From a bacterium (lineage in GTDB: Bacteria > RBG-13-61-14 > DATKZS01): a stretch of 64,000 bases of DNA. Made by a program: the position numbers and the translations under genes. The DNA is taken from the NCBI GenBank assembly GCA_963674965.2, contig CAXXFL010000006.1:1120001-1184000 (forward strand), read 5' to 3'. Under the pieces are notes generated by a model. It did no database searches. It was given only the letters and a program-made list of their open reading frames with translations, and was not told where the DNA came from. Position 1 is the first letter of the stretch. Each line of letters opens with the position of its first letter. Below are positions 11,114 to 61,411 of the stretch, one piece after another.

Positions 11114-11182
11114 GTTGCCTCCCAATCGGCCCTACGGCTTCCTCGTCAGCTTCTCGGCCAGTTTCAGCGCCAGGCCGGTTTG

Positions 11183-11328: not shown

Positions 11329-11492
11329 CGTTCAGTCCTCCATTGAATCAAGATTCGGAGTGATCGATGATATCCAAAATAGAGAATCTACTTTGGTTTA
11401 ACAAAATTTAGCCTTGGAAAGAGCAAGGTCCGTCACGATATTTTCCTCGCGTTCAGATTTTCGCGGGTGTTTTGGCCCCACCAGTATCTTGT

Positions 11493-14894: not shown

Positions 14895-14911
14895 CTACAT
14901 CCTCCTTAACG

Positions 14912-15121
14912 AGGTCCCCCACGCGTCATGCATGGGCGGCGTAAGCCGCGGGCTGAGGTCCTCCATTTCCAGACCCGACGCGGCCATCCAATCCGACGCG
15001 GGGAAAAAACCGGGCGCATGCTCCTATCTCCGAGGCCATAAGCCCGTTCGCCGCGCTCACCCAAGCAAGATGCGTGGGCGACCCGGAATGGTGGCGGCCG
15101 GAAGTTTGGCAAACCCCTCAG
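14912..15121. repeat. Complete ~210-bp composite repeat (two inverted REP-like hairpins, L + spacer + R)
   Basis: Left part matches 11183-11328; right part matches 10364-10440 and 17403-17450. Confidence 0.85.
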
Positions 15122-15156
15122 GCCGGCTCCACTCATTCATCCTATATCATACGGGC

Positions 15157-15897: not shown

Positions 15898-16178
15898 CTT
15901 TAACCACCGGACGGTTTAGATGTTACGCCAAGATGGGGATTTAGACAAAAGTTAAAAACCGGCCCGATAAACTTGAGAAGGCGCGCCCCGGCCGGGGCTA
16001 TACAAGGGGGGAAAAGGAATGGGCTGAACCGGAGCTATTCATTCAACATTACTTTCCCGTTCCCGGCTTTCTTTCGTCGAAAAACACTTCTTCTTTCGAG
16101 ACCGGTTTGGACATGGAAGGATTTGGATATATCTTCATTGGCGAGGGGGCCATACAAGGCCCGACGGGGGGAAGCCTA

Positions 16179-17252: not shown

Positions 17253-17402
17253 CCGCTGGTACTTCGGCCGCTTATTTTTGTCGGGTCGTCGCGTCATTAA
17301 AAACGGTGATGAAGCGACTCGGCAAACAAGCCGGCATTTAAGCGCGCAATCGTCCCGCTCCGTTGCGAAGCCGTCGGCAAACGACCTCGATTCCCTGGAC
17401 CA

Positions 17403-17450
17403 AAGCCCGTTCGCCGCGCTCACCCACGCAAAATGCGTGGGCGACCCGGA
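17403..17450. repeat. REP-like repeat, R module
   Basis: AAGCCCGTTCGCCGCGCTCACCCACGCAAAATGCGTGGGCGACCCGGA; matches 15040-15087. Confidence 0.85.
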
Positions 17451-17489
17451 TTCCGGACGGCTCGAAGTCATATAACGACCTGTAAGTCT

Positions 17490-17560
17490 GGGTCGCCCAT
17501 GCATTCTGCATGGGCGGCGTAAGCCGCAGGCTGAGTCCCTCCTGCCGCCGGCCCCCTTCC
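17490..17560. repeat. REP-like repeat, L module
   Basis: GGGTCGCCCATGCATTCTGCATGGGCGGCGTAAGCCGCAGGCTGAG. Confidence 0.85.
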
Positions 17561-17668
17561 GGCCCGTTCGCTTTTCTCGCCCACCCGATTTTATCCGGTC
17601 ATCGCTCCGTATTGGCGGCAAGGCCAAGACGCGCCCAACAAGCAAGCCGACATTTTATAGTCGGAGTA

Positions 17669-19381
17669 TTAGAGGGTCCGCGATGGTCCTCCCTTTAACA
17701 ACTCGGCCGCCCTGGCCGCGTGCTCGGAATCGGGATACCGTTCTATAAGGGCCGATAGAACGTTGGCCGCGTTTTCCCGCATGGCGCACTTCATCATCAG
17801 TATCTCGCCGCACCGATAAAGCGCCTCGGCCGCCCGGGGATCGTCCTTGTAAAGGACGCCGTACTCCCGCAACATGCGCGCCGCCTCGAGGGGCTTTCCC
17901 GCCTTCTCGGCCCAGTCGGCCACGGCCATCAGCTCGGGAGGATCGAAGGTGAAGTCGGGTATGGTTTTCCTGTAGTCCTCATACATGTCGAAGAGGGCCT
18001 CGAGGGCGTACTGCCTGACGAAGTCTCGGGCCAGCTCGCGCCCGTATTTTTTCACGGTCTCCTGGTCCCCGAGGTGATAGGACGCCACCATAATGCCGCG
18101 GAGTCCTCCCAGGTTTTCCGGGTCGGCCGCCAGCACTTCCGCGAAAAGGACCTTGGCCTGATCGAAGCTTCCGTGCTCGATGAGGTAATTGCCGTGCATG
18201 ACCTTTTCCGACAGCTCGATATCCCGGCCGAGGTCGCGCCCCGCCTCGGGAGGAGCCGCTCCCCCCGGGCCGGCCGCGACGTCTCGGCCGCTTTTCGCGA
18301 CCGCCGCCGCGGCCAGGGCCACGCCCGCTCCGTATGTTTCTTCCCCCGGCGACCAGAAGGGCGTGGTGGGCTTGCCGTCCACTCTAAAGGTCGGCTCCTC
18401 CTCGGTCTCCCGCCACCACTTCAGCTTGTAGCGGGTCTGGTAGGAAAGGTATCCCATCAGGTAAGCGACGGTGATCAGCATGTAAACGTGAGCCGCGCCG
18501 TCCACGACGTAAAACAGAACGTGATAGATAACGTACTTGGAAAAGGACTTCTCCGGAAGAAGGGCGTGAAGCGCGGTCCTGGCAAGGGCGTAGACGATAA
18601 AAATTCCCGCGATGACGGCGAAGGCCCTTCTGTATTCGTCCTTTATCTTTTGCACCTGGGACGAGATGAACCTGAGGTCGAAGGCCTTGGACCCGCTCTT
18701 GAACACCCCCTGGATCAAAAGAGACATGGGGAACATGTAAATGGCCTGCGAAAAATATATGCCGCCCACCACCAGAAAAAAGGACAGGAAAACGTAACGG
18801 ACCCATACGTCGGGCCAGTAGTACACGCTGTTAAGCGACAGTATGATAAGGACCAGGGGCCAGAACATGCCCAGAGCGGCCACGAACAGCCTGACGTAGG
18901 CCAGGCCGAAATCCTGGAGCGGGCTAGTGCCCGGCCTGGCCCTTGGCAGCCCGAACCTTCCGTCCTCGACCCATGACACGCTCAGATAGAAGTAGGGGAT
19001 CATGAAGGAGAAGAAGGTCGAGTAAGCCACCATGATGGTCGCCCTCCAAAAGCTCTCCATGCCCATGTTCTCGAATTCCTCGGCGAAAAAGACGTAGCCG
19101 TAAAGGGTCCGAAGCATGGTCGCCAGCGCGACGAAGACGGCCATCATCACGGGTCCGTACTCGGTAAAGGCCACTGTGAAAACGTTGCGAAGGTTTTTCC
19201 AGAAGGGCATGATCTGGATATAGGGGGACAGGTCGGTAAGGGAGTTCGAGCACCTGGCGCACATGATCACGCTGGTGTGCTTGAAGGGTCTGACCTTTAC
19301 GCACTCGGCGCAAAAGCCCTTCTCGCATCTCGGGCAATGATAGGTCGCGCTCCTTTCCGGATGGTTGGCGCAGTGGATCAT
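17669..19381 (-). CDS. Membrane protein with N-terminal B-box-type zinc finger and C-terminal TPR
   Basis: CANHP...CPRC...CAEC...CARC, several TM helices and C-terminal AEALYRCGE...YPDS TPR-like segments. Confidence 0.8.
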   Translation of the reverse strand: MIHCANHPERSATYHCPRCEKGFCAECVKVRPFKHTSVIMCARCSNSLTDLSPYIQIMPFWKNLRNVFTVAFTEYGPVMMAVFVALATMLRTLYGYVFFAEEFENMGMESFWRATIMVAYSTFFSFMIPYFYLSVSWVEDGRFGLPRARPGTSPLQDFGLAYVRLFVAALGMFWPLVLIILSLNSVYYWPDVWVRYVFLSFFLVVGGIYFSQAIYMFPMSLLIQGVFKSGSKAFDLRFISSQVQKIKDEYRRAFAVIAGIFIVYALARTALHALLPEKSFSKYVIYHVLFYVVDGAAHVYMLITVAYLMGYLSYQTRYKLKWWRETEEEPTFRVDGKPTTPFWSPGEETYGAGVALAAAAVAKSGRDVAAGPGGAAPPEAGRDLGRDIELSEKVMHGNYLIEHGSFDQAKVLFAEVLAADPENLGGLRGIMVASYHLGDQETVKKYGRELARDFVRQYALEALFDMYEDYRKTIPDFTFDPPELMAVADWAEKAGKPLEAARMLREYGVLYKDDPRAAEALYRCGEILMMKCAMRENAANVLSALIERYPDSEHAARAAELLKGGPSRTL

Positions 19382-19394
19382 TCGCCGCTCCTCG

Positions 19395-21851
19395 CTAATG
19401 TCTTAGCTCGATGGCCACCTCGCCGCCCTCGTCCGGCGCCTCGATGGTTACCGCCCCCTCCGATTTCAGGTAGCCGTATTGCTCGAGGCCCGGGCCGGGC
19501 CGCTCGTCTTGCTTTGCAGGCCTCGCCTCGGTCCCGTTGATTAAAACTTGTCTTGGCCTCGATCCCGTCCTGACCTTGATCTTCAGCGTCCGGGGAGGAG
19601 GCTGGAAGGGTCCCTCCCTGGGACGGATCGTCACCGACAGGCCGCCGTCCTCAAGGCGTTCCTGATGAACGCGACGCCTTGAGAACACCCCGCTCTCGTA
19701 ATCACGGCTTATACCGTCGTCCTCGTAAAGCGACGACTCGGAGCGGCCCGAGGCCGGCGGGTACAGATCGATCTTGAGGAACTCGGGCGGCTTCTCGTCC
19801 AGCCACCTTAGGGCGGGCCAGAGGAAAAGAGCGGCGCCGTCCCGGACGTAAACGGGCATGGTCTCGAGGGGCGCGCGACGCTCGATGGTCCTCGGTCCCC
19901 CGATCTCCTCGCCCGTCCAGAAGTCCGTCCATTTCGCCTCGGGAAGATATACCTCCCTCCGCCTCGATCCCTTCTCCATGACCGGCGCGATCATGATCCA
20001 CGGCCCGATCATGACCTGGTCGTCGATGCGCGGAGCGACCCGGTCCTCGGGAAAGTCGTAAAACAGCGGCCTGAAAACGGGGGCCCCGCTCTCGTGGTGC
20101 TCCCTTACCAAGGAGTACATGGCCGGGTGGAGGCGGTAGCGGAGCTTCAGGTAACGGCGGGCTATGCTCTCGACTTTCGCCCCGAAGCTCCACGGTTCCT
20201 GCCTCGAGGTCCAGATGGCCGAGTGGGTACGGCTAAACGGATAAAAAGCCCCGAGTTGTATCCAGCGAGCGTAAAGCTCGGGCGAGCAGTTGCCCTTGAA
20301 GCCGCCCACGTCGGCCCCGCAAAGGCCAACGCCCGAGAGGCCCAGGTTGAGGAGCATGCGGACGCTGAGGGCCAGGTGGTTGAAGGCGCTCGAGTTGTCT
20401 CCCGTCCATACGGCGGCCAGGGACTGGACCCCCGCGTAGCCGGCGCGGGTGAGGATGAAGGGACGCTCGCCGGGCCGCAGCCTCTCGAGGCCCTCCCGCG
20501 TGGCCCGGTTCTCGTCCATGGCGTAGAGGTTGCGGCAGGCCTCGTGGTCGAGCTTCCGGCCGTTCGCTTCATGGATAAGGTCGGGGTCCTTGATGGTTCC
20601 CACCGCCGCCACCGAGCCGCCCACCCGAGCGTCAAGCCGCCAGCAGGCCGGCTCGTTCATGTCGTTCCATATCCCCCGAATCCCGGACTCGATAAGCACC
20701 GAGTGCATGTCGCCCCACCAGGTCCCCACCCCGGGTCTCGAGAAGTCGGGAAAAGCGACCTTACCCGGCCACACCCGGGCGCGAAACTCCCTGCCCAGGG
20801 AGTCCCTTAGAAAATAATCATTGTCCACTCCCTCACGGTAAGGCTCGTATTCCTCGTCCGCGGCCAGGCCGGGGTCCACGATGGATATGAGCTTGAAGCC
20901 CGACTCGGCCAGGTCCCCGGACATGGCCTTCATATCGGGAAAGCGCTCGCGGTCGATGGTGAAAGAGCGGTATCGGTCCATATAGTGAATGTCCAGGTGG
21001 ATGACGTCCGAGGGGACGTCCCTTTCCCGGAACTCCCGGGCTATCCCTCGGACCTCCTCTTCGTTCTTGTAGGACCAGCGGGACTGGTGATGCCCCAGGG
21101 CCCAGCGGGGAGGCATGGGCGCGTGGCCCGTTACGTCGGCGTAGCGGGAAAGGACCTGGGCCGGCGTGGGCCCGAGCATGACGTAAAGGTCCAACTCGCC
21201 TTGCGCGGCGTTGTATCCGAAGACCTCGCCGAAGGTCGCGCCCAGGTCGAACCCCGCCCGCCCGGGGTTGTCGAAGAGGAGACCGTTGGCCTCCCCCTCC
21301 CGGAGAATAAGGGCGAAGGGAATGGACATGTAAATGGGGTCCGTATCCATGGAATAGCTCTTGTCCGCGTTCCACATCTCCATCTTGCGCCCGAGCTTGT
21401 TGAAAGGGCCCGTCTTTTCCCCGAAGCCGAAGTATCCCGAGTGACGATCGATCGAGTGGGCCAGGGCCACGCCCGTCTCGGTCCAGCCCATGCAAAGACC
21501 AGGATACTCCTTAAAGACCGCGTTGCCCGAGGAGTCGTAAACGCTCAGGCGATAGGGCTTCCTCGCCGCGATCAGCCTGAAACCGGGAAAAAAGACCTCG
21601 GCCGCGGCCGCCTTCTCGACCACCTCGGGGTCGGGACCCGCCTTGCCGGACATGGAGGGCGCGAAATAACCGCCGTCCCCCATCCGGCCGCCCCTGCCCG
21701 AGCGGATAAGGAGAACGCCCTCCATAGGATTGGAAATCCGGACCGAGCCGCCTTCACCTTTTAGAAGCACCCCGCCCTCCGAGGTCTCGATACCGGTAAG
21801 TTCCCCGAACTTAACGAAGCGTTTATTATATAAGTTTTTTATTACGTCCAT
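19395..21851 (-). CDS. Alpha-glucosidase, glycoside hydrolase family 31
   Basis: GFGEK, HQSRWSY, LDIHYMD, WNDMNEP (nucleophile), WTGDN, GADVGGF and EPW motifs. Confidence 0.95.
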   Translation of the reverse strand: MDVIKNLYNKRFVKFGELTGIETSEGGVLLKGEGGSVRISNPMEGVLLIRSGRGGRMGDGGYFAPSMSGKAGPDPEVVEKAAAAEVFFPGFRLIAARKPYRLSVYDSSGNAVFKEYPGLCMGWTETGVALAHSIDRHSGYFGFGEKTGPFNKLGRKMEMWNADKSYSMDTDPIYMSIPFALILREGEANGLLFDNPGRAGFDLGATFGEVFGYNAAQGELDLYVMLGPTPAQVLSRYADVTGHAPMPPRWALGHHQSRWSYKNEEEVRGIAREFRERDVPSDVIHLDIHYMDRYRSFTIDRERFPDMKAMSGDLAESGFKLISIVDPGLAADEEYEPYREGVDNDYFLRDSLGREFRARVWPGKVAFPDFSRPGVGTWWGDMHSVLIESGIRGIWNDMNEPACWRLDARVGGSVAAVGTIKDPDLIHEANGRKLDHEACRNLYAMDENRATREGLERLRPGERPFILTRAGYAGVQSLAAVWTGDNSSAFNHLALSVRMLLNLGLSGVGLCGADVGGFKGNCSPELYARWIQLGAFYPFSRTHSAIWTSRQEPWSFGAKVESIARRYLKLRYRLHPAMYSLVREHHESGAPVFRPLFYDFPEDRVAPRIDDQVMIGPWIMIAPVMEKGSRRREVYLPEAKWTDFWTGEEIGGPRTIERRAPLETMPVYVRDGAALFLWPALRWLDEKPPEFLKIDLYPPASGRSESSLYEDDGISRDYESGVFSRRRVHQERLEDGGLSVTIRPREGPFQPPPRTLKIKVRTGSRPRQVLINGTEARPAKQDERPGPGLEQYGYLKSEGAVTIEAPDEGGEVAIELRH

Positions 21852-21911
21852 TTCTCTATTTCACCGGCCGCCTATTTTTATGCGGCCATCGCTCCGTCAA
21901 TACGGCAACCA

Positions 21912-21980
21912 GGGTCGTCAAGCATCCTGCATGGGCGTCGCAAGCCGCGGGCTGAGTTCCTCCCGCCGTCCGGCCTCCTT
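21912..21980. repeat. Degenerate REP-like repeat, L module
   Basis: GGGTCGTCAAGCATCCTGCATGGGCGTCGCAAGCCGCGGGCTGAG. Confidence 0.75.
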
Positions 21981-22086
21981 TTCCTCCGTTCGGAAGCCGC
22001 CAAACGCCCCCGCTTATGAAGCCAAAAGCCCGTTCTCTTCACCGCGGGATTTATTTATTCCACCGTCGGCATGAAAAAAGCTCGTG

Positions 22087-30449: not shown

Positions 30450-32912
30450 ATGGAAGACAAAAGTAAAAAGATATTGAAATCGATCGAAAGGGGGGGGGAG
30501 TTCCTGGCGGCCCGGTCCCTTCTTCGGGATTTCATCGTGCTTGCCTTCTTGACGGCCCTCTTTTTCCACCGGGCCTTTCCTGGGGATTTTATCTGGCGCG
30601 ACGCTTATCACGAGTATTACGTTCTGCGCTTGATAATTGACCGGGCTGGGGGCTTTCCCCTCTGGAACCGTCACGTATATTGCGGGTCTCCCCTGGCCGG
30701 GGCCGTGTATCCAGGATTATGGTACCCGGTAAACCTGCTCCTGTTTACTCTCAGTCCACTTCCGGTCGGTTTGTCCTGCAAGCTTTTCATCATGATCCAC
30801 TTTCTGGCCGCCGGGGCGGGGCTTTCCTTTTTGGCTCGTAAAGCCGGCGTTAACGGCTCGTCCGCCCTTGTCGCGGGTCTGGCCTATGAGTTCTCTGGCT
30901 ACCTCGTATGCCAGCATTCGTCCATTAACCTGCTTCCCTCCTTTACTTTGGTCCCGCTGGCCATGGCTTTTATGGGAAAGGCCAGGTCGGGCGACGGCCT
31001 ACGCTGGGCCGCTCTGGCCGGGGTCTCGGCCGGTCTGACCTTTTTGGGGGGCGACCCGCAGGGGTTCGCGCTGGCCCTGGGCCTCGGGGCCTTATGGGCC
31101 ATATTCGCCTCGTCGGGTCATCCCGGCGCGGACATAGGCCGCCGTTTAACCTGGGGCCGATTGGCCCAGGCCGTCGCTCTGATGACCCTGTTCGCCCTCG
31201 CCATTGCCGCGATCGAATTCATCCCCGCTCTTTCCGTTCTGGCTCAGAGCGGAAGGGGAGGGGGGTTCGATATCGACGTGGCCGGGTGCTGGTCCTTCCA
31301 TCCCCTCCGGACCATCGAGTTCTTGCTGTCTCGTCCCTTTGGAGACTCCTTGGGGCTGGACAACTACTGGGGCGCTTTCCTGGGGGAGAAGTGCTTTCCC
31401 CTTCCTCTCACCATGTCGCCCTATCTGGGGGTCTGGACCTGTTTCGCCGCGGCATTGGCGTGGAGGTATCGCGAGGGCAAAGGGGACGGCGTCCTTTATT
31501 TCTTCTCCGCCCTTTTGGCGCTGGCCCTCCTGATGGCGGCCGGCCGGCATTCTCCCGTTTACCGCCTGGTTTTCGCTTCCCTGCCCGGCATGCATCTTTT
31601 AAGGTATCCGGAAAAATACCTTTTCGTGGCCGCTATCTCCTCGTCCATGCTGGCCGGGCTGGGAACGAAAAGGCTCCTTGCCCGCCGGAACGAGGCGAGG
31701 TCTCGATTCGCGTCTTTAGGCCCGCCTTTCCTGGCCCTCGCTTTAACGGTCCTGTTTGTACTGGCGTTGAAGATATTTGAAGTCGAGCTTCTCGGGCCGC
31801 TCGGCAATCTCCTTGCCAGGGGCGCGCCCGCCGAGGTCACCCCCGAAATGGCCCTCGCCGACGTCAAGCGGGCCGTCGTCTTTTTCGGTTTCATGATGGT
31901 GTTTTGCCTGATGATTTTCAACGCCGTAAAAGGCGGGGCCTCGAGGTGGCGCGGCGCTCTCATTATGTTATTTCTTTTCGCCGATCTTTATATCGCCAAT
32001 TCACCGCTCGCTCCGGTCGCGAAAAATATCTATAAGGGAGATTCAAGGTTCGCGTCCATTATTCTAGGCGGCAAGGGAAATGAGCGGGGACGCGATGGGC
32101 GGCCCGAGACGATCAGGATGTTTCGGGACAACGGCATTGCCGATCCCGGGCGGCTGACCCTCCAGGAAGTGAGGCTTTGGGAAAGGGACACCCTTAAGCC
32201 GAACATTGCCCTGGCCTACGGGATAGAGTATTTCGGCGGCGTCAACGTGGCCCACGCCGCACGCTTCGACGACCTCATGAAGCGGGCGGTGGGCTTTTTC
32301 GACCTGCCGGCTTACAACGTGAGGTTCGCCGCGGTTTCCGAGCGGCAACCTTTAGACCTGGATTCGAACGCTCGGGTGATCGAAAGCTACAGGGGAGTAA
32401 AGCTTATCGAGTTCAAGCGATACCTGCCCAGGGCCTATTTTATTGGCCGGGCTAGGTCGGTGGAGGAGGAAGAGGAACTTTTCGCGCTGATGAGGAATTT
32501 CCAGCCCGAGCGTTTCGTAATATTGGAAACGGGTCCCGGCCTGGAGCCGGTCAAGGAGTCGGCGCCCGGAGCGGAGCCTCTTTTAAGGGACGCCGAGGTA
32601 ATTTCGCATGGCGCGAACCGGGTGGTGGTGGAGGTCGATTCTCCGTCCTCCGGCTGGCTGGTGCTTAACGACTCTTATTCTCCGGGCTGGAGCGCCCGGG
32701 TCAACGGGGCCTCGGCTCCAATCTATCGCGCGAACGGCCTGGCCCGGGCCGTTCCCGTTCCCTCCGGCGAGGTCAGGGTCGAGTTCTCCTACTTTCCTCC
32801 CGGCCTGGCGCTCGGCATGGCGATTACGTCTTTGGCGCTTATCGCGACGCTCGCCTGGTTCGGTCTGGCTGCTATAAGAAGCGGTCGCTTTTGGAAAAAG
32901 CCAAGAGCATAA
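30450..32912 (+). CDS. YfhO-family membrane protein (GT-C-like)
   Basis: PLWNRHVYCGSP, LRYPEKY and C-terminal LVLNDSYSPGWSARVNG...RAV...F.Y.P motifs; many TM helices. Confidence 0.85.
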   Translation: MEDKSKKILKSIERGGEFLAARSLLRDFIVLAFLTALFFHRAFPGDFIWRDAYHEYYVLRLIIDRAGGFPLWNRHVYCGSPLAGAVYPGLWYPVNLLLFTLSPLPVGLSCKLFIMIHFLAAGAGLSFLARKAGVNGSSALVAGLAYEFSGYLVCQHSSINLLPSFTLVPLAMAFMGKARSGDGLRWAALAGVSAGLTFLGGDPQGFALALGLGALWAIFASSGHPGADIGRRLTWGRLAQAVALMTLFALAIAAIEFIPALSVLAQSGRGGGFDIDVAGCWSFHPLRTIEFLLSRPFGDSLGLDNYWGAFLGEKCFPLPLTMSPYLGVWTCFAAALAWRYREGKGDGVLYFFSALLALALLMAAGRHSPVYRLVFASLPGMHLLRYPEKYLFVAAISSSMLAGLGTKRLLARRNEARSRFASLGPPFLALALTVLFVLALKIFEVELLGPLGNLLARGAPAEVTPEMALADVKRAVVFFGFMMVFCLMIFNAVKGGASRWRGALIMLFLFADLYIANSPLAPVAKNIYKGDSRFASIILGGKGNERGRDGRPETIRMFRDNGIADPGRLTLQEVRLWERDTLKPNIALAYGIEYFGGVNVAHAARFDDLMKRAVGFFDLPAYNVRFAAVSERQPLDLDSNARVIESYRGVKLIEFKRYLPRAYFIGRARSVEEEEELFALMRNFQPERFVILETGPGLEPVKESAPGAEPLLRDAEVISHGANRVVVEVDSPSSGWLVLNDSYSPGWSARVNGASAPIYRANGLARAVPVPSGEVRVEFSYFPPGLALGMAITSLALIATLAWFGLAAIRSGRFWKKPRA

Positions 32913-33166
32913 GATTAATTTGACAAATAAAGTACAAGAAAAATTGATATTTGCGATTATTGTCTCCATTTTACAACAGGTATGCCAGCCTATCAGTACG
33001 AACAAACTTTTATTCCTCTAAAATCAACATAATTAATATAATAAATAAAAATAATTAAAATATTCAATTTCAAACTTGACATTTAAGATTTTTGATGTAC
33101 ATTAATATTAACTGGCCGGGAAAAAGAATATCCATCCCGGCGCCTGACGGAACTGGAGAAGAAAAA

Positions 33167-35793: not shown

Positions 35794-36450
35794 GAAACGT
35801 ACCCCGCTTGACGACGCCCCGCCGCCGTCCGCTTAACCCGTTTTAATCGCCGTTTTGAAAAACGATAAAAGGCGGTTGGAACGTCGGACGCCCGGACGCC
35901 CGGACGAAAGGTCCAAATTCGGCGTCGTTCGAATACATGAATGATAGTTAATCGCCCTTGCCAAGTCAAGAAAGGGTAAGGCGGACTTCCCCGTTTTTTC
36001 AAAACTTGGGATGCAAGGCTCGTGGCGGTCTGCAAACAAATCGCGGGCCAAGGCCCGAAGGGCTCTAATATCAGTAGCCGCAAGCGCCAGCCTACGGCTA
36101 CTCGAATTTTCCCCTACCTTCGGGGGGGGGGAGGCGACCGCGTCCGTTTCAGCGGCTTCGGCGACCGGACGCGTGAGGAGACGACGATTGATTTTCACTT
36201 CGCGCGGCGGACATCTTGCCGGATGGAAAAGAGCCAATAGTGAAACGGTTAAAATTGGGAGGAGTTCTGAGCGCGAAACATTGACATCCCTAGGCCTCTA
36301 AATTGTGTGGCCCAAAATTCTTGTTGTTTAATGGGCGCTGATTATGTATTCTTCTCTTGATGGACTCAGCGTAAAGCCTTCCACCTATGAGTCGGGGCTT
36401 TCAGCGGAATAATTTATCGTTTCATGACTTCACCGCCGGCGAGGCGCCGA

Positions 36451-50019: not shown

Positions 50020-50027
<8 letters not shown>

Positions 50028-50751
50028 CGAACTTGCCGGATAAAAGAGCGTTCCTGGCGGCTTCCTGCTCGGCCTCCTTTTTGCTCTTTCCCTTGCCCAG
50101 GCCGCAGGTTATGCCCTCGACTTTCACCTCGACCTCGAAGGTCTTCATGTGGTCCGGGCCCTGCTCCTCGATGACGCGATAAACGGGAGTGCTTTTATAA
50201 AGGGCCTGGACCCTCTCCTGGAAGGGCGTCTTATAATCGCCCAACAGATCGATGGGAGGAAGGGAATCGAGCAGGGGCTGGAAAAGACGCTCGATGACCT
50301 TGAAGGTCTCGTCGAACCCTCCGTCCAGGTAGATGGCGCCCATAAGCGACTCGAAGGCGTCCTCCAAGATCGAGGTCTTGTCCGCGCCGCCGGTCAGCTT
50401 CTCGCCCTTGCCCAGTCTTAAAGCGTTGCCCAGTCCGAGGTCCCTGGCCAGGTCCGCCAACCTGTCGCAGTTGACGAGCCCAGCCCGAATCCTCGAAAGC
50501 TCTCCCTCCGCCGCGCCGCTGAAACGGAGCATGAGCATATGGGAAACCACCAGCCCGAGGACCGCGTCTCCCAGGAACTCGAGCCGCTCGTAATGGATTT
50601 TTATCATCTCCCTCCCGTCGTCGAGCAGCGACTGGGTGACCTCGTGGGCGAATGACGAGTGCGTCATGGCCCTCTCGAACAGCGCCCCGTTTTTAAAGCG
50701 ATACCCGATCTTGTCCTGGATGACCTCCAGGGACTCGGTATTGTTTCCCAT
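50020..50751 (-). CDS. rnc: Ribonuclease III (possible internal start inside the fusion ORF)
   Basis: YERLEFLGDAVL, EDAFESLMGAIYLDGG and dsRBD DYKT...GPDH...SKKEAEQ; GGAGA 7 nt before ATG 50751. Confidence 0.85.
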
Positions 50752-52116
50752 CCAATTGTCTCCATTCTCCGTGATATTGTATCCAACGCCCGACCGTATC
50801 TGTATCCGGCCGTTCGGCTCGATCTTGTCGCCCCAAAGGGCCGCGCCGTCATGGGAATATATTTCTACTCGATAAATATTGCCTACCATGTCCGCGCCGC
50901 CATTGCATCCGACCCTTAAGTAATTATCGCTCGTCCCGAATATTTTACCGTCCATCTCCGTTTCCCCGAGCGTCTCCAACTCGAAACCAACCTGTTCCTC
51001 CAGGAAAGCGGCCCTCTTCTTTTTGCCCAGCTTCCTGAGCTCGGCGGCGCGGGCCTTGATGGTCTCCGGGTCCAGATGGCCGGGCATGGCGTCGGCCGCC
51101 GTGCCGGTACGCCTGGAATAAGGAAATACGTGAAGATAGGTCACGGGAAGCTCGGTAATAAAATCAAGGCAGTTGGAATGCTCCCTTTCCGTCTCGCCGG
51201 GAAAGCCGGCTATCACGTCCATGCCAAGGCCGGCCCGGGGCATGGCCTCCTTAAGACGCCAGACGGCCCGCCTCACCGCGTCCACCTTATAGGGCCTGCC
51301 CATGCGGGTGAGGACCTCGTCGTCTCCGCTTTGCAGGGGAACGTGGAAATGAGAGCAGAACAATCCTGAATCGGCCGCGGCCTCGATCAGGTCATCGGTC
51401 AACTCCTGCGGCTCGATGGAGGACAGCCTGATCCTGGCGGGCATATCCCGGCTCCCGGCCAGCAGCTTGAGAAGGTCCGAGAGCTTTTTGCCCCATTCCT
51501 TGCCGTAAAGCCCAATATGCACGCCCGTGAGCACGGCCTCGCGAAACCCGGCCCGGGCCACGCCCCGGAGTTGGCGGACCACCTCGGCCATGGGCACGCT
51601 TCGGCTCGGTCCCCTCGCCACGGTGACGATGCAATAGGCGCAGTTGAAATCGCAGCCGTCCTGGATTTTCACCAGGGCCCTGCCCTTTCCCTTTTGCAGC
51701 CCGCCCTCGGGATGATAGAAAACGGGGGACCGGGGAAGGACTTTCCCCGTCAGTAGCTCGATCACCCTCTCCCGCTGGGAGGGCCCGACCGCCGCGTCGG
51801 CCCCCGCCTCGAGGAGCGCCGGGGCGGAAACCTCGGCCAGGCAGCCGGCGGCGATGATCTTCGCGGCGGGGCCGACCCTCCTGGCCCGCCTGATCATCTG
51901 CAGGCACTGCATCTCCCCCCGCCTGGTCACGGCGCAGGTGTTGACCACGTAGGCGGCCGCCTCGACTTCCTCGTCAACCGCTCCTCCCATGTCCACCGCC
52001 AGGAAAGAATCGGCCGGGACCATGGCCATCATGGCCGCGGTGTCGTAGCGGTTGGCCTTGCATCCCAGCGTGATAAAGGCCGCTATCGGGAGTCGCCTCG
52101 AGCCTTCGCTTCCCAT
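50020..52116 (-). CDS. mtaB: tRNA methylthiotransferase MtaB in one reading frame with ribonuclease III
   Basis: TLGCKAN, VNTCAVT, KIQDGCDFNCAYC (radical SAM), HFHVPLQSG and HVFPYS motifs; no stop before the RNase III domain. Confidence 0.85.
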
Positions 52117-54543: not shown

Positions 54544-54584
54544 CCCCGGCGCCCGCGGACCAGCACCCGGCGCCGGGGATTTTT
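54544..54584 (+). terminator. Putative intrinsic terminator
   Basis: CCCCGGCGCC...GGCGCCGGGG followed by ATTTTT just after the stop codon. Confidence 0.5.
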
Positions 54585-54653
54585 ATGCCCTGTCATTTTC
54601 CAGGAAGCTTAAAGAGGCTGGAGATATTCTGAGAAAGTATTAATTATGGAAAA

Positions 54654-54684
54654 TTGACATCCCAGGGGGGGGGGGGGGTAGTAT
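54654..54684 (+). promoter_or_regulatory. Sigma70 promoter with a G14 homopolymer in the spacer (putative phase-variable switch)
   Basis: TTGACA 54654-54659; spacer TCCCA+G14 (19 nt); TAGTAT 54679-54684; 66 nt before ATG 54751. Confidence 0.7.
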
Positions 54685-54750
54685 TGTAATTTACAGCATG
54701 GTAACATATGGATGAATTGTCTACAAATCTCGGAGAAGGGGGATTAAGTC

Positions 54751-56064
54751 ATGAGGGCTAAGATTGGAATGGCGTTGGTTGGAGTTTTGGTTATGGCCGT
54801 GGTGGTGGGGATTGCCTGGGCGCAGTCCGCTCCGCAGCTTATCAATTACCAGGGGCGGCTCACGAACGCGGCGGGGCAGCCGCTTGCGGACGGTACTACC
54901 GTTGATCTGACATTCGCTTTCTATGGAGTTGAAACGGGCGGGACCGCGTACCTCACGGTTTTCCAGGAGGACGTGGTGGTCAATGGCGGTATTTACAACG
55001 TGCTCATCGGCTCCGGTACGGTCACGCCCGGTTCCGAGCCCAACCTGGGCGCTGTCTTCCAGAACCACCAGGACGTGTGGATGGGGGTCGAGGTTGAAAG
55101 CGATGGCGAGATGTCGCCCCGGTCCAGGATCGCCAGCGTGCCTTATGCCTTGAAGGTAGAAGGAGGCTGGCTTACGGCCTTTTACAATAAGAGCGATTAC
55201 GACGGGGACGGTTACTCAAAGGTCGTTGACGGGGCCACGGCCACCACGGATTGCAACGATGTCGACGCCTCCATAAACCCCGGCGCGGCCGAAGTCTGTG
55301 ACGACGGTTTCGATAATGACTGCGACGGCAAGATCGACGGTGATGACCCTGACTGCCAGGGAGGAAGCACTGTCGGCCCAATGGCCCTTATCCCCTCCGG
55401 CTGTTTCAACATGGGCGACGCGTTCAGCGAGGGAAGCAGCGATGAACTTCCGGTGCATAACGTTTGCATCACCTCGGACTTCTACATGGACGTTCATGAG
55501 GTGACCAACTCGGAGTACGCGGCTTGCGTGAGCGGAGGGGGATGCACGGCGCCCGGCTATTCTTCAAGTTATTCTCGCGGCTCTTATTACGGTAATCCGA
55601 CCTATGACAATTTTCCTGTTATCTGGGTTGACTGGAATCAGGCCACGGCCTATTGCGCCTGGGCGGGCAAGAGACTGCCCACCGAGGCCGAGTGGGAGTA
55701 CGCTGCCCGTGGCGGCCTGTCCGGCAAACGCTATCCCTGGGGAGATACAGCTACAGCATGTGTTGACGCAAATTACGATTGGTGTATTGGAGATACCAGC
55801 GAGGTTGAAAGCTATCCTGCTAATGGTTACGGTCTTTATGATGTGGGGGGTAATGTTTATGAATGGGTCAACGACTGGTATCAGAGCGATTACTACAGTA
55901 CAAGTCCCACCAACGATCCTCCCGGTCCCGCGTCAGGTACGTCTCGCGTTTTGCGCGGCGGCTATTGGTTCGGCGCTACGCACGACCTGCGCGTGGCGAA
56001 CCGGGCCGGCACTACGCCTACTCTCCGGAGCTACGACATTGGCTTCCGTTGTGCTGGGGACTGA
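54751..56064 (+). CDS. Secreted FGE-sulfatase (C-type lectin fold) domain protein; putative DGR target
   Basis: Signal peptide; INYQGRL N-terminal domain; DCND...PGAAEVCD..DNDCDG metal-binding repeat; RLPTEAEWEYAARGG, NGYGLYD.GGNVYEW and RGG.W...GFRC motifs. Confidence 0.9.
   Translation: MRAKIGMALVGVLVMAVVVGIAWAQSAPQLINYQGRLTNAAGQPLADGTTVDLTFAFYGVETGGTAYLTVFQEDVVVNGGIYNVLIGSGTVTPGSEPNLGAVFQNHQDVWMGVEVESDGEMSPRSRIASVPYALKVEGGWLTAFYNKSDYDGDGYSKVVDGATATTDCNDVDASINPGAAEVCDDGFDNDCDGKIDGDDPDCQGGSTVGPMALIPSGCFNMGDAFSEGSSDELPVHNVCITSDFYMDVHEVTNSEYAACVSGGGCTAPGYSSSYSRGSYYGNPTYDNFPVIWVDWNQATAYCAWAGKRLPTEAEWEYAARGGLSGKRYPWGDTATACVDANYDWCIGDTSEVESYPANGYGLYDVGGNVYEWVNDWYQSDYYSTSPTNDPPGPASGTSRVLRGGYWFGATHDLRVANRAGTTPTLRSYDIGFRCAGD
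55945..56064 (+). other. Putative DGR variable region (VR)
   Basis: 3' end of the CLec domain; 16 of 20 non-consensus codons end in C/T, as expected from AAY template codons; followed by a hairpin and avd. Confidence 0.65.
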
Positions 56065-56094
56065 TTACTCTTTTGTCCTTTTTAACTCTTACAC

Positions 56095-56122
56095 TTTAAT
56101 GGGGGCGTAAGCCCCCATTAAA
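56095..56122. other. Perfect 12-bp hairpin downstream of the VR (DGR target-recognition hairpin and/or terminator)
   Basis: TTTAATGGGGGC-GTAA-GCCCCCATTAAA. Confidence 0.7.
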
Positions 56123-56134
56123 AAATTTTTAAAA

Positions 56135-56320
56135 ATGAAGAAAGAACTTCCCGCTGTTCAAAAGGCGTATGATCTGTGCAAAGAGGTTTTGCCAAGGGTT
56201 TCAAAGCTTCCAAGAGACGTGAAGTTCACACTGGGAGACCGGATAGCCGACAATTGCCTTGCCGTGCTTGAGATATTGCTTCAGGCCGCCGGCGTTACGT
56301 TTTTCAAGAGGCCTCATTGA
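56135..56320 (+). pseudogene. avd: Truncated DGR accessory protein Avd (four-helix bundle), N-terminal half
   Basis: ELPAVQKAYDL...KLPRDVKFTLGDRI...LEILLQA; the resemblance stops at about residue 51. Confidence 0.75.
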
Positions 56321-56386
56321 TTATCCTCTCACCCCGGCTTACAATAATTTCATGTCAAAGAGGCCAATTAATTGGGGAGAATCTTC

Positions 56387-56635
56387 ATGAAAGACGAGGC
56401 TTTACTGGAGCACATCGTTTTAGACGCCACCGTGATGGCCGGAAAGCCGGTTATTCGCGGGACTCGGCTTACCGTTGATTTCATCCTGAACCTTTTGGCT
56501 CATGGCGCCACCGAGGAAGATATCCTGGCCGAATACAAAAGTCTTTCTAAAGAGGACCTCCGCGCCTGCATTCTGTTCGCGGCCGAGGCCATCAGGAACA
56601 CGGACTTTATGCCGCTGGCCGCTAAAACCGTCTGA
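56387..56635 (+). CDS. DUF433 family antitoxin
   Basis: MAGKPVIRGTRLTV...EDILAEY..LSKEDLRAC motif. Confidence 0.9.
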   Translation: MKDEALLEHIVLDATVMAGKPVIRGTRLTVDFILNLLAHGATEEDILAEYKSLSKEDLRACILFAAEAIRNTDFMPLAAKTV

Positions 56636-56745
56636 TGAAATTCATGGTGGAAGAATGTACGGATCCAGCCGTAGCCTCCTGGCTACGATAGCAAAATCAC
56701 GAGGTATTTTCGGTTTTCGACCAGGCCAAGGGCGCGAATTGGTGA
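56635..56745 (+). pseudogene. DUF5615 PIN-like toxin remnant
   Basis: ATG overlaps the DUF433 stop; MKFMVEECTDPAVASWLR*QNHEVFSVFDQAKG with TAG at 56689, then truncated. Confidence 0.75.
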
Positions 56746-56777
56746 TTGAAAAGGGCGCTCGACCAGCTTCCCGCCGT

Positions 56778-57186
56778 TCAAGGGAAGTATCTATATAAAT
56801 CCTTGCGGTGTAAAAAGCGGACAAAGATTACGGTATCTCCTTCCAAAGTGAATCCCAACCTGTAATCTCCTATCCTGATCCTGTAATGCCCGCCGCTGGA
56901 CGTCAGCTTTTTCATTAGCCTCTTGAAAAAGTCCCGCTTTGGAGTGCGGCGGCTCGACGCCGCTTTTCTTCCGAGCGGCTTGACGCGAGGCTGGCCGTTT
57001 TATTGTAAGGCCTTGTCAAGCCAAGGCCATCGAAAGCGGTCTCAAGCGACCGCGCTCCAAAGCGGCTATGCCGCCAAGAAAAGGACTTTCGCAAAAAATT
57101 CTCATATTACCGATTTGCGCGCTGTTTTCCGCTTGCTTGACAATATCGATGGTTTTACGCGCGCGCCCTTTGTAATCAACCTTCAA
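56778..57186 (-). pseudogene. RelE/ParE-family toxin interrupted by a MITE
   Basis: MKVDYK...KQAENSAQIGNM [insert] KKLTSSGGHYRIRIGDYRLGFTLEGDTVIFVRFLHRKDLYRYFP. Confidence 0.8.
56916..57101. mobile_element. 186-bp MITE carrying an inverted REP-like pair
   Basis: TCAT direct repeats 56912-56915 and 57102-57105; imperfect 19-bp TIRs ending AAAGTCC; internal CTTTGGAGTGCGG...CCGCGCTCCAAAG. Confidence 0.75.
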
Positions 57187-57194
57187 GCGGCGCC

Positions 57195-57392
57195 TCAGAG
57201 AGCTTTCAAGACTTCATCTTCCGAGACTGAATCGGTGTTTATTCCCTCTTCAATGGCATTGGCCATTGCAAAATCCTCGATTACTTCGGCCATCACCTCG
57301 TAAAACAAGTCCCGGCGTTCAGACGGGGCTTCCAGGACCGCCTCCTTTAGAAGCTCCTTGATTCTTTCCTCGCCAAACAATTGTTCAGCCAT
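57195..57392 (-). CDS. Putative antitoxin of the RelE-like toxin
   Basis: Small acidic protein (EVIEDFAMANAIEEG...VSEDEV) directly upstream of the toxin; AAGGAGG SD. Confidence 0.7.
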   Translation of the reverse strand: MAEQLFGEERIKELLKEAVLEAPSERRDLFYEVMAEVIEDFAMANAIEEGINTDSVSEDEVLKAL

Positions 57393-57510: not shown

Positions 57511-59043
57511 ATGGCTCAGGAAGACCCAAAAGAAGCTTTGCCAAGACCCGCAGGATACTCTGCGCTCGTTCAGCGGTACGATCTTGATGTGATCCAGAAC
57601 TGGCATGAGTCTTATATCGCGGCCAGTGGAATCCACCGGATCGATTCCACTGGCGATGTTACCGTTGAGACTTATCCTTCTCAATACTGGCCCGGGGATC
57701 GATTGGGCGACCATCTTGAATTCGCGCTCAAGTACGACGGCATCAACCTCGCAATCCTCGCCAGCCTTTTCCAGAAGGCCGACGAAAAAGAAGTCCTGGA
57801 ATACATTGAATCCAAACCGACAGGTAAATACGCGCGGCGGGTCTGGTTCCTCTACGAGTTCATGACGGGCGGGATTCTGCCGATTCCAGACTTGAAGCGA
57901 GGGAACTATATCGACTTGTTCGAGTCCGAATCGTACTACACGGTGAGCCAGGCTCGCAGAGTAAAGCGCCAACGGATCAACGACAATATGTTGGGAGACG
58001 GCAAATTCAGCCCCATCGTGCGCCGAACCGAAACCCTTCTGGCTTTTGAAAAGGCCCATCTGACCGAGCGATGCCGGGAAGTTGTGGCAAGCTATTCCCC
58101 GGAACTGTTGAAAAGGGCGCTGGGATACCTTTACTCCAAAGAGACGAAATCATCCTTCGAGATCGAACACATCAAACCAAGCTCAACGCGCATAGAGCGT
58201 TTCGCGGCGTTGCTCCGATTGGCGGAGCAAGAGGATTTCTGCCGGAAGGAGCGACTGATCGATCTTCAGAACAATATCGTAGATCCCAGGTTTCGGGATT
58301 CCGACTACAGAGCGAATCAAAACTACGTCGGTGAGACCGTGGCCTGGCAGAACGAAAAGATTCATTATGTGTCTCCGAAGCCTGCCGACTTGCCGGGCCT
58401 GATGGAAGGTCTGCTGGAAGCCCATACGCGGATGGAGACAGGCCAAACCCAAGCGGTGATCCACGCCGCCGTCATCGCCTACGGGTTCGTCTTCATGCAT
58501 CCCTTCGAGGACGGGAACGGCAGAATCCACCGTTTTCTGATCCATAACGTTCTCGCCCGAAGAGGGTTTACGCCCCCCGGAGTTATGTTTCCCGTCTCGG
58601 CTTCGATGCTGAAAAACCCGAGTGAGTATGACGCATCCCTCGAAGCGTATTCACGAAAACTGATGCCCTTGATTGAATACTCTCTCAACGAAGAGGGCAG
58701 CATGACGGTCCACGACGATACGGCCATTTGGTACCGCTACCTGGACATGACGGCTCAAGCAGAAGCGCTTTTTCATTTCATTGATCTGACCATCAATACC
58801 GAGCTCACGAGTGAACTGGCCTTCTTGGCCAATTACGACCAAGCCAAGAAAGCCCTGCAAGAGATCGTGGACTTGCCGGACAGACGGGTCGATCTTTTTA
58901 TCCGGTTCTGCCTGCAAAACAACGGGCGAATTTCCTCAAGAAAGCGCGCGAACCACTTTGACTTCTTGTCGGATGACGAAATCGCTCGGATGGAGCAAGC
59001 CGTCCATTCCGCTTATGGGGACATAAATTCCACGCCTAAATAA
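57511..59043 (+). CDS. Fic family protein
   Basis: HPFEDGNGRIHR motif; ETKSSFEIE. Confidence 0.93.
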   Translation: MAQEDPKEALPRPAGYSALVQRYDLDVIQNWHESYIAASGIHRIDSTGDVTVETYPSQYWPGDRLGDHLEFALKYDGINLAILASLFQKADEKEVLEYIESKPTGKYARRVWFLYEFMTGGILPIPDLKRGNYIDLFESESYYTVSQARRVKRQRINDNMLGDGKFSPIVRRTETLLAFEKAHLTERCREVVASYSPELLKRALGYLYSKETKSSFEIEHIKPSSTRIERFAALLRLAEQEDFCRKERLIDLQNNIVDPRFRDSDYRANQNYVGETVAWQNEKIHYVSPKPADLPGLMEGLLEAHTRMETGQTQAVIHAAVIAYGFVFMHPFEDGNGRIHRFLIHNVLARRGFTPPGVMFPVSASMLKNPSEYDASLEAYSRKLMPLIEYSLNEEGSMTVHDDTAIWYRYLDMTAQAEALFHFIDLTINTELTSELAFLANYDQAKKALQEIVDLPDRRVDLFIRFCLQNNGRISSRKRANHFDFLSDDEIARMEQAVHSAYGDINSTPK

Positions 59044-59647: not shown

Positions 59648-61411
59648 GTTCCAGTTGCGTAACTAGAAAAAGCCAATAAAAACAATGTGCTGTAAGCATT
59701 TTTCGCTTCCCTTTTTGGTCTTGTTATGATACAATAACTCCTTGAAAAATCAAGGATTGACTTGCCGGGATGCTGTGAAGGGGGCGAAAAATGCGACCGA
59801 AAATTAAAATGCAAATGACCATTGAAGACCACGAATTTTTGAAAGCGGGCCATCTTTTCAAACAAGACACTGAGCTTGAGAAGATGAGCATAGCGCTCGA
59901 CGAGGCCAAGGAAATTCTGGAAGCTGTTGCCGATGATCTCCAAAGCGGACTCAAGGAGACCGGCGCCGAGGGGATGAGCGTCGAGCAGGTCCTTAGGAGC
60001 GCGGTCATCTATCAACTCAAGTGTTATTCCTACCGGGAACTCGGCGACCGCCTCGGTTCCGATTACAATTTCCGCAAGTTCACCAGGTTCTTCGGGCGGG
60101 ACATTCCCCATTTCAGCAGCCTGGAGCGGGCGATAAAACGCATCCGCCCCGAGACCTGGGAGCGGATCAACGAAATGCTCGTGGCCCTGGCCATTAAAAA
60201 AAAAGTAGAAGACGGCGAGGCGGTCCGCGCTGACACCGCGGTGGCCGAGGCCAACATCCACTATCCGACCGACGCTTCGCTTCTTTTTGACAGCATCCGT
60301 GTATTGGACCGGTTGATGAAAGGAGCGCGGAAGGAGCTGCCGGGTCTCGGGTTCGAATATCATGACCGGACTCGGCGGGCCAAGAAGCGCGCTTACCAGA
60401 TCGCCATGGGCAAAGGCAAAGGGATCGAGAAGAAACGGGCGGTCTGGTACCGGGACCTTCTCAAGGTTTCGGCGGAAATCTTGGCCATGGCCCGCTCGGC
60501 GCGGGAGGCGCTGGACGAGGCCCTTAAAGGCGGAGAGCTTTATTTCAGCGATGCGGGCCTGGCAACCATGATCAAGAGCGAACTCGATCATTACCTGCCG
60601 CTTTCTGAGCAGTGCGTCGAGCAGTGCGAGCGGCGGGTTATAAAAGGCGAGAAGGTTCCCGCGCAAGAGAAGGTGGTTTCCGTTTTCGAGCCGCACGTTG
60701 ATATCATCCGGAGAGGCAAGACCATGAGCCCGACCGAGTTCGGTCACAAGGTGATGGCGGCGACGGGAAGGTCGGGGATTGTGCTTCAATATAAAGTGTG
60801 CGAGGGCAACCCTTCCGACGCCGACCTTTTCGAGGACATTTTGCAAAAACACGTCCGCCTGTTCGGCAAGGCTCCACGCGAGTTTACCGGCGACCGCCGC
60901 TTCTATCATGAGGACAATGAGAAGCTTGCGACCGAAGGTCCTTATTATATCGAGCGCCTGGCCATTCCCAAGCCCGGCAAAAGGAGTTCGGAGCGGATCG
61001 AGCACGAGCGTCAGCGCTGGTTCAAGAAGCTTCTTCGCTTCCGGGCCGGGATCGAGGGCGGCCTTTCCGCCCTTCTTCGCGGCTTCGGTCTGAGCCGATG
61101 CCTGTGGAGAGGTTTCGAGAGCTTCAAGTCCTGGGTGGGTCTTTCGTTCTTTGCCTGGAACCTTCGAAAACTCGCGCTGCTGACTTAGCCGCCGCCGGGC
61201 GCGCCCCTGTGGGGGCAATGAAAAACGGAAATGAAAAACAGCAAAAGGAGAGGTGTTTTTTGAAAGGATAGAAAAGGGCCGGCTCAGGCATTCAACTCGC
61301 CTGAAAGCGTTAAAATCTTTTCCGTCCTTTATGGACGCCCTGAAAATCTGCATGTCCATATCCTCTCCGCACCGCATAATGAAAGCCATTAAGCAGTTGT
61401 GCAACAGAAAC
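59648..61411 (+). mobile_element. Complete insertion sequence (ISNCY/IS5-like), 1764 bp
   Basis: 17-bp TIRs GTTCCAGTTGCGTAACT / GTTTCTGTTGCACAACT (13/17); TAGTTA direct repeats 59642-59647 and 61412-61417. Confidence 0.85.
59791..61188 (+). CDS. DDE transposase (ISNCY/IS5-like)
   Basis: RADTAVAEANIHYPTD, EKVVSVFEPH, EFGHK, GDRRF and FRAGIEGGLS motifs. Confidence 0.9.
   Translation: MRPKIKMQMTIEDHEFLKAGHLFKQDTELEKMSIALDEAKEILEAVADDLQSGLKETGAEGMSVEQVLRSAVIYQLKCYSYRELGDRLGSDYNFRKFTRFFGRDIPHFSSLERAIKRIRPETWERINEMLVALAIKKKVEDGEAVRADTAVAEANIHYPTDASLLFDSIRVLDRLMKGARKELPGLGFEYHDRTRRAKKRAYQIAMGKGKGIEKKRAVWYRDLLKVSAEILAMARSAREALDEALKGGELYFSDAGLATMIKSELDHYLPLSEQCVEQCERRVIKGEKVPAQEKVVSVFEPHVDIIRRGKTMSPTEFGHKVMAATGRSGIVLQYKVCEGNPSDADLFEDILQKHVRLFGKAPREFTGDRRFYHEDNEKLATEGPYYIERLAIPKPGKRSSERIEHERQRWFKKLLRFRAGIEGGLSALLRGFGLSRCLWRGFESFKSWVGLSFFAWNLRKLALLT

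Follow-up and report, generated by a model that had tools for sequence, protein, structure and literature searches.

The locus under study lies within a 64,000-nt stretch of bacterial DNA (positions 1,120,001 to 1,184,000 of contig CAXXFL010000006.1, assembly GCA_963674965.2; hereafter, the window) and consists, in this order, of a candidate promoter whose spacer contains an uninterrupted run of 14 guanines (G14), an intact gene for a secreted-type protein with a variable C-terminal end, a perfect 12-bp hairpin and a fragment of avd, the accessory gene of diversity-generating retroelements (DGRs). All of these elements had been pointed out in an earlier note on this DNA, and our analysis recovered each of them as described, including the TTGACA and TAGTAT hexamers on either side of TCCCA plus G14 (Table 1). 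The combination of a C-type-lectin (CLec)/FGE-sulfatase fold with hypervariability near the C-terminus, followed by a hairpin and the remains of avd, makes it highly probable that the gene is a DGR variable-protein (target) gene. The reading that we favor as a whole—a rewritten secreted DGR target, either remote from its retroelement or orphaned, that is read from a promoter with a G14 spacer—has, in our judgment, an even chance of being correct.

The protein has a modular architecture, with an FGE-sulfatase domain (residues 211-435, E 2.6e-60 in Pfam), a MopE-type cysteine motif ahead of it (residues 167-196, Pfam) and a β-rich N-terminal domain preceding that motif. Its N-terminus reads by eye as a signal peptide (residues 1-24, ending in AWA in front of QS), and a helix spanning residues 2-24 was placed at the same position in the AlphaFold model. 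Sequence searches against the PDB matched formylglycine-generating enzyme (FGE, E 7e-48) and the Treponema denticola variable protein TvpA (2y3c, E 3.9e-26), and the same two kinds of protein were retrieved with the model in Foldseek (FGE 2q17, E 5e-18; TvpA 2y3c, E 4.5e-10). The model itself is of moderate quality (a mean local confidence, pLDDT, of 61.6 and a predicted template modeling score, pTM, of 0.50) and was used only for confirming the FGE-like fold. The window protein thus possesses the C-terminal CLec/FGE-sulfatase fold carrying the variable residues, in agreement with the secreted FGE/CLec-fold gene of the earlier note. With FGEs as the top matches in both sequence and fold, the protein could be read as a working formylglycine-generating enzyme rather than a binding protein, but we regard this as extremely improbable. 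In the alignment with 6muj and 2q17, the two-cysteine stretch of FGE ('lchdsyc')—a C-x4-C pair near the C-terminus that we take to be the active-site cysteines, with a catalytic role—faces a three-residue gap in the window protein, such that both cysteines are missing. Moreover, this stretch coincides with the hypervariable segment, and the window protein carries a signal peptide and extra N-terminal domains.

The evidence for DGR-type rewriting comes from comparisons with homologous proteins and with related loci, the closest of which belong to metagenome-assembled genomes (MAGs) labelled 'bacterium' and 'uncultured Desulfobacterales bacterium'. The sole other member of the 90% cluster of the window protein, P0001, has the same length (437 aa) and is 94% identical, with the 26 differences distributed very unevenly: 10 fall within residues 13-100, none within residues 101-397 and 16 within residues 398-429. 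The contig reported for either protein is 1,249,510 bp long, which makes P0001 most probably a paralogue from the same genome. Across 27 full-length homologues, residues 398-430 hold 19 of the 30 highest-entropy columns, and these variable columns are split by an invariant scaffold (RVLRGG-W------LRVA-R----P------GFRC), while the conserved 3′ end of the segment, IGFRCAGD, resembles an initiation-of-mutagenic-homing (IMH) site. At the codon level, the non-variable FGE part is under strong purifying selection, with ratios of non-synonymous to synonymous divergence (dN/dS) of 0.09, 0.06 and 0.13 against the related loci L002, L001 and L003, respectively, at a dS of 0.9-1.9. The same comparisons over codons 398-430 gave dN/dS values of 2.4, 1.3 and 2.4 at a dS of only 0.25-0.31—a low synonymous and high non-synonymous divergence, as expected from repeated overwriting from a conserved template with adenine-specific errors. 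Additionally, the residues that cannot arise from AAY codons (K, E, Q, M and W) make up 8.8% of the hypervariable columns and 12.9% elsewhere (Fisher P 0.006). These data uphold the variable-region-like (VR-like) 3′ end that the earlier note had proposed. One related locus, L074, provides a direct counterpart: its VR and template repeat (TR) lie 170 nt apart, 22 of their 25 mismatches fall at TR adenines, and its TR has the same 40-codon layout as the variable segment of the window. The 5′ leader, signal peptide and 3′ flank are also common to L074 and the window. A TR-like sequence in this genome or its relatives, whose absence was among the refuting conditions named in the earlier note, is accordingly present in L074.

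The region following the variable segment resembles the corresponding part of known DGRs. Guo et al. (PMC3240598) describe GC-rich stems of 7-10 bp with 4-nt GRNA loops, located 4-34 bp downstream of variable regions, that are required for efficient retrohoming, with the IMH plus the hairpin being enough to target a foreign gene. The hairpin in the window matches this description in its distance (30 nt), loop size and GC-rich core, and may be regarded as a candidate DGR target-recognition hairpin and/or the terminator of the gene; it could equally be the latter. A generic scan for terminator-like structures returned one site against 2.7 expected, so that the hairpin count alone is not above chance. 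At the equivalent place, L078 and L001 have hairpins built on the same ATGGGG...CCCCAT core, L074 has one with GGGGC/GCCCC, and L003 and L004 carry an insertion; because the stems of L078 and L001 share the same core sequence, covariation cannot be counted. The avd stub begins shortly thereafter, and its 52 residues match residues 12-63 of a 126-aa Avd at 92% identity, beyond which the similarity ends. The corresponding bAvd match in Pfam covers profile positions 4-48 of 107 and scores 22 bits, with a cut-off of 40. The order of target, VR, hairpin and avd is the same as in the DGR of Bordetella phage BPP-1 (mtd-avd-TR-brt), and that system likewise has a GC-rich hairpin with a 4-nt loop within 4-34 bp of the variable region. 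In contrast to the BPP-1 arrangement, the stem in the window has 12 bp instead of 7-10, the loop is GTAA instead of GRNA and avd is cut at codon 52; the window also contains neither TR nor reverse transcriptase (RT), and its context is chromosomal rather than that of a phage.

Upstream of the target gene, a terminator-like hairpin followed by a U-run (with a z-score of only -1.5) closes the preceding gene, labelled cNMP-binding/PilZ by Pfam assignment, and the target gene therefore needs a promoter of its own. The candidate, termed P1, belongs to a pattern class (TTGACA-N16-19-TANNNT) that is found four times in the window against 0.49 expected, with none of 100 shuffles reaching four. In three of the four cases, the match is on the gene strand and its second hexamer ends 34-67 nt before a start codon; for P1, the ATG of the target gene follows at 54751. 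Judging from these matches, the organism appears to use consensus sigma-70 promoters, and TTGACA-(TCCCA+G14)-TAGTAT is a credible one, in keeping with the placement of the G-tract inside a promoter spacer by the earlier note. A generic promoter scan admits spacers of 16-18 nt only, and P1, with 19 nt, is consequently absent from its list. Within the window, G14 is the longest homopolymer, followed among G/C runs by G10 at 36122 and G9 at 30490, and there are no C runs of at least 8. With base and dinucleotide frequencies taken from the remainder of the window, an order-0 model predicts 0.0009 and an order-1 model 0.0035 G runs of at least 14 in 64 kb; with an expected count of only ~0.001-0.003, the tract is far beyond chance. 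Conservation with L074 (75% nucleotide identity over 141 nt of leader and signal peptide, window 54688-54823 versus L074 50-189) starts at about 54685, directly after TAGTAT, which fits a transcript starting there.

The two shorter G runs are of interest in their own right. The G9 run (30490-30498) occupies codons 14-17 of a 912-aa open reading frame (ORF) with a YfhO-like C-terminal match and a likely ATG start at 30450; the 5′ end of a coding sequence is a classic site for a translational phase-variation repeat. The G10 run (36122-36131) lies inside a 630-nt region between a divergent methyl-accepting chemotaxis protein gene (start 35793, minus strand) and a gene for a PAS/GAF histidine kinase (start 36424), with no recognizable promoter around it.

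Several observations weigh against the view that the tract acts as a switch. The spacer as assembled is 19 nt, which may mean that the promoter is weak or silent, and the length of G14 comes from an assembly, where the exact length of a homopolymer is uncertain. Upstream DNA is available for one relative only, L074, in which G5 occupies about the same place and TTGACA is missing; the contig of L078 stops 48 nt before the ATG. Five G/C runs of at least 9 were found in 1.09 Mb of related loci, none of them in the promoter of an FGE gene. Furthermore, the conserved TGGTAACAT below the tract could be a real promoter (P2, a possible extended -10) that is independent of the tract. Transcription would then start from TGGTAACAT, and G14, at about -49 to -36, would act as an upstream element, influence activator spacing—for which Bordetella fim offers a precedent—or be inert. 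This arrangement draws on the conservation of TGGTAACAT and the leader in L074, where the sequence above ~54685 is not conserved; nevertheless, TGNTANNNT is a common pattern, the conservation may reflect a leader RNA element, and P1 has a perfect -35 hexamer and a pattern class strongly enriched at gene starts in the window. We deem a downstream start distinctly unlikely. Homopolymer lengths are error-prone on several sequencing platforms, and the contig of L078, which is among the two closest loci, ends 48 nt short of the ATG, which could point to G14 being a sequencing or assembly artefact. However, the tract sits in the interior of a long contig and is flanked on either side by ordinary unique sequence, and artefacts shift the length of a run by a few bases and do not create a 14-mer; we consider an artefact very unlikely indeed. 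We also dropped the idea that the G run is a non-templated tail of a retro-copied transcript, as the tract is not at a homology boundary and L005, another related locus, has tandem DNA duplicates. On balance, the chance that the G-tract alters transcription through changes in its length by slippage falls slightly short of even.

Table 1. Position of the promoter, target gene, retroelement remnants and neighboring features in the window
Feature	Position	Strand	Remarks
Terminator-like hairpin and U-run of the upstream cNMP-binding/PilZ gene	54544..54585	+	Fold -26.1 kcal/mol, then UUUUU
-35 hexamer TTGACA (candidate promoter P1)	54654..54659	+	6/6 to consensus
19-nt spacer, TCCCA + uninterrupted G14	54660..54678	+	G14 at 54665-54678
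-10 hexamer TAGTAT	54679..54684	+	4/6 to consensus, with A2 and T6
5′ leader conserved with L074	54685..54750	+	Includes TGGTAACAT and GGAGAAGGGGGA
TGGTAACAT, possible extended -10 (P2)	54699-54707	+	Conserved in L074, downstream of G14
GGAGAAGGGGGA, Shine-Dalgarno-like	54732-54743	+	Within leader
Probable target (variable-protein) gene, 437 aa	54751..56064	+	ORF list, Pfam
VR-equivalent segment	55939..56061	+	Placed by analogy with VR/TR homology of L074
Hypervariable codons 398-430	55942-56040	+	Within VR-equivalent segment
Perfect 12-bp hairpin, GTAA loop	56095..56122	+	30 nt after stop, then A/T-rich run
avd 5′ stub, 52 codons	56135..56290	+	ORF continues through unrelated sequence to stop at 56320 (61 aa)
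Context after the breakpoint	56372..57392		DUF433 gene, 45-aa ParE fragment (-), inverted-repeat element, RelB-like gene (-)
132-nt inverted-repeat element	56934-57065		33-nt arms 56934-56966 and 57033-57065
Fic gene	57511-59043
DDE transposase gene	59791-61188
TTGACA-N16-19-TANNNT match	33076-33103		Overlaps first possible start of DUF2089 ORF (from 33092), i.e., gene 5′ end
TTGACA-N16-19-TANNNT match	44294	-	Precedes Na/H exchanger gene
TTGACA-N16-19-TANNNT match	54654	+	Precedes target gene
TTGACA-N16-19-TANNNT match	57450		Precedes Fic gene

The remaining machinery of a DGR, for which the earlier note had proposed a search, is missing from the 64 kb, and this absence is one of several points that weigh against the favored reading. 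No TR-like copy was recovered by blastn at word size 7 with 55700-56135 as the query (only the segment itself and the hairpin arms were returned), a repeat finder run over the window gave no TR, and a Pfam scan of 41 window ORFs detected no RT (RVT) domain. An avd of intact length (about 110-130 aa) is likewise lacking. Eight full-length Avd relatives of the stub, with 71-92% identity, are all located on contigs of 966-6263 bp (1.5 kb for the best of them, P0122, at 92%) and none on the 1.25-Mb contig; such short contigs would fit intact cassettes that break assemblies, a pattern that proves nothing for the window genome. The TR of L074 was rejected as the template of the window, since 19 of 42 mismatches fall at non-A positions. 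To these points can be added the GTAA loop of the hairpin, which departs from GRNA at its second base (T where R is expected), and the lack of A at third codon positions of the variable region (0 of 19), which is not significant (P 0.22). With TR and RT absent from the 64 kb and avd cut at codon 52, we are inclined to doubt, though not strongly, that a DGR is currently acting on the target gene.

Beyond the avd breakpoint, the G+C content is lower and the surroundings appear decayed, with toxin-antitoxin and insertion-sequence debris occupying the place of the missing cassette parts. A RelB-like antitoxin gene in 56778-57392 is accompanied by only the last 45 codons of ParE, with the inverted-repeat element occupying the place expected for the ParE 5′ part. 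Copies of the arm of this 132-nt element with ~86-91% identity were found by BLAST in L001 and L003, so that it looks MITE-like (i.e., similar to a miniature inverted-repeat transposable element); the exact 33-nt arm had no match in the 80 related loci. Neither Rfam matches nor tRNA genes, as markers of an island, were found in the whole window.

Related MAGs display the same unit—a target gene, then the hairpin, then an avd stub of differing length. The stub spans about 22 codons in L078, about 13 in L003 and L004 and about 11 in L001, and it is degenerate in L002; in L078, L001, L003 and L004, an ORF follows directly after the stub. In L074, avd is gone altogether, and what comes after the TR is not an RT but an 81-aa ORF without a Pfam match and a HicA toxin gene. 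L003 and L004 are 99.93% identical over 2835 nt and were counted once rather than as independent cases. L001 and L003 have one common junction, implying that orphan targets are inherited across species. Several copies can occur in one MAG, as is the case of L001 with L078 and, in another MAG, of L004, L005 (two copies, as tandem DNA duplicates) and L074. When the 80 loci were screened by motif for TRs in cis, which provides a lower bound, A-biased pairs emerged only in L074 and L041. The latter, with 18-20 of its 23-27 TR mismatches at A, belongs to an HRDC-type DGR with a fragmentary RT and is too distant to be informative here. L078 was rejected as a full-length orthologue of the target gene, being a mosaic of 48 MRAK-module codons, a frame change and a different lipoprotein-like start. 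The signal peptide MRAKIGMA... is common to the window protein (437 aa, with extra domains) and that of L074 (291 aa), the mature parts of which differ, and such patterns suggest that the 5′ ends of target genes are modularly shuffled. Separately, seven homologues with 58-80% identity (P0004, P0015, P0016, P0018, P0020, P0028 and P0072) reside on four contigs of 0.43-1.6 Mb, in some cases two or three per large contig. The repeated occurrence of a target next to a hairpin and an avd stub whose length varies may point to a particular route by which DGR targets are copied around the genome.

These observations bear on whether the locus is a fossil, in the sense that the serving DGR is dead or gone, the variable region is frozen, the product is a fixed binding protein and G14 is neutral or mildly deleterious in a weak promoter. 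The truncated avd and the lack of TR and RT in the 64 kb are in line with such a state, as are the decayed surroundings (the ParE fragment by the inverted-repeat element and the insertion-sequence transposase), the different break points of target and avd stub in relatives, the junction of L001 and L003, which shows that orphans persist, and a 19-nt spacer beyond the 16-18 nt of three similar promoters. On the other hand, the ORF is intact, with a dN/dS of 0.06-0.13 in its non-variable part, and the 297 identical residues before the variable-region differences from P0001 argue for recent rewriting. A pure 14-nt run should also decay fast unless renewed or selected. Furthermore, DGRs can act in trans on remote targets (PMC5758913). 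Weighing both sides, a fossil locus seems to us rather unlikely.

The favored reading, a remote or orphaned target under a G14-spacer promoter, runs as follows. The locus would belong to a family of secreted DGR variable proteins present in multiple copies, in which the FGE-sulfatase/C-type-lectin domain bears a variable region of ~33 codons at its C-terminal end. This region has been rewritten relative to P0001, with a fixed codon set and low synonymous but high non-synonymous divergence in the manner of DGRs. At present, the gene would either be diversified in trans, as a remote target of a master DGR located elsewhere in the genome, or be an orphan in which the last diversification is frozen. 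Transcription would proceed from TTGACA-N19-TAGTAT, and slipped-strand loss of one to three G would shorten the spacer to 18-16 nt and turn expression up, while a gain would turn it down, as in the fetA/porA type of switch. The direction of this effect follows from the spacer of P1 being 1-3 nt longer than those of the other three promoters of its class in the window (16, 18 and 16 nt).

A more ambitious version would have a master DGR elsewhere diversifying several targets, each switched independently by its own promoter repeat, in a fully active two-layer system. The rewriting relative to P0001, the close homologues on large contigs together with the multi-copy families in related MAGs, the G14 in the promoter spacer and the pair of shorter G runs located at 5′ regions of the window (G9 in the YfhO-like gene and the intergenic G10) would all agree with it, but relatives lack the tract and the window lacks TR and RT. 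We think this version improbable, and the same holds for the narrower proposition that both layers are currently active together at this locus. The coupling of expression switching with hypermutation that the earlier note had put forward is thus sustained in part: the DGR target and the G14 in a promoter spacer stand, whereas TR, RT and intact avd are missing from the 64 kb and the tract is not shared by the available relatives.

Each part of the arrangement is of a known kind—on one side a remote or orphaned DGR variable protein of the FGE type, on the other a homopolymer within a promoter—and their pairing on one gene was not found described. TvpA of T. denticola is likewise an FGE-type CLec protein with a C-terminal variable region, and remote targets, far from the RT, that are served in trans are documented for chromosomal DGRs (PMC5758913). 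The window genome differs from the Treponema DGR in having no known TR or RT and in that each orphan target carries an avd stub. The Treponema system is not known to include a homopolymer in a promoter. For the promoter, the closest likeness is found in Neisseria, where homopolymers between the -35 and -10 hexamers of fetA (poly-C, C10-C14) and porA (poly-G) change expression (PMC5320596, citing Carson 2000 and van der Ende 1995). In both settings, the spacer length of a surface-protein gene is determined by 10-14 identical nucleotides lying between the two hexamers; for fetA and porA, variation in tract length and an influence on expression are on record, while both are predictions for the window. 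The two cases also differ in that the window organism is an uncultured environmental bacterium and its gene a DGR target. The vlp genes of Mycoplasma hyorhinis combine a promoter homopolymer switch with a second mechanism varying the coding sequence of the same surface-protein gene, although this second layer is tandem-repeat size variation and not adenine mutagenesis by a retroelement. The earlier note knew of no description of the pairing seen here, and a full-text search, with subscription journals outside its scope, found no paper on a repeat-controlled promoter at a DGR target. Where DGRs and phase variation are mentioned together, the subject is phages facing phase-variable hosts (PMC10053308, PMC11792537).

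Two other features of the window are recorded here. On the minus strand, a 698-aa ORF (50020-52116) joins a MiaB-like UPF0004 and radical-SAM part to RNase III and dsRBD domains; it is an unusual fusion, or possibly a read-through of two genes. Repeat families of 52-109 nt with internal palindromes are found in 10346-22035, at three to four intergenic sites around TPR and glycosidase genes. These repeats, exemplified by GCCCATGCAT...ATGCATGGGC and GCGGCGTAAGCCGC, look REP-like (i.e., similar to repetitive extragenic palindromes).

Among the ways in which bacteria pre-programme variation, DGRs and repeat-mediated phase variation are the two that are understood best: the former alters what a protein binds, and the latter alters whether the protein is made. 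If both layers work at this locus, environmental bacteria would join bet-hedging in expression with hypermutation of a binding site, and the locus would offer a simple, testable model of this combination. Even without a switch, orphan targets with avd stubs bear on how families of DGR targets spread and survive beyond their retroelement. Carried to its furthest extent, the genome would hold a set of paralogous secreted CLec receptors, their tips rewritten in trans by a DGR and each of them tuned by a slippage-prone promoter repeat—a speculative picture to which we assign a low probability. If true, a clonal population would display many combinations of expressed and diversified receptors, amounting to a system akin to antigenic variation or clonal selection in a free-living environmental bacterium.

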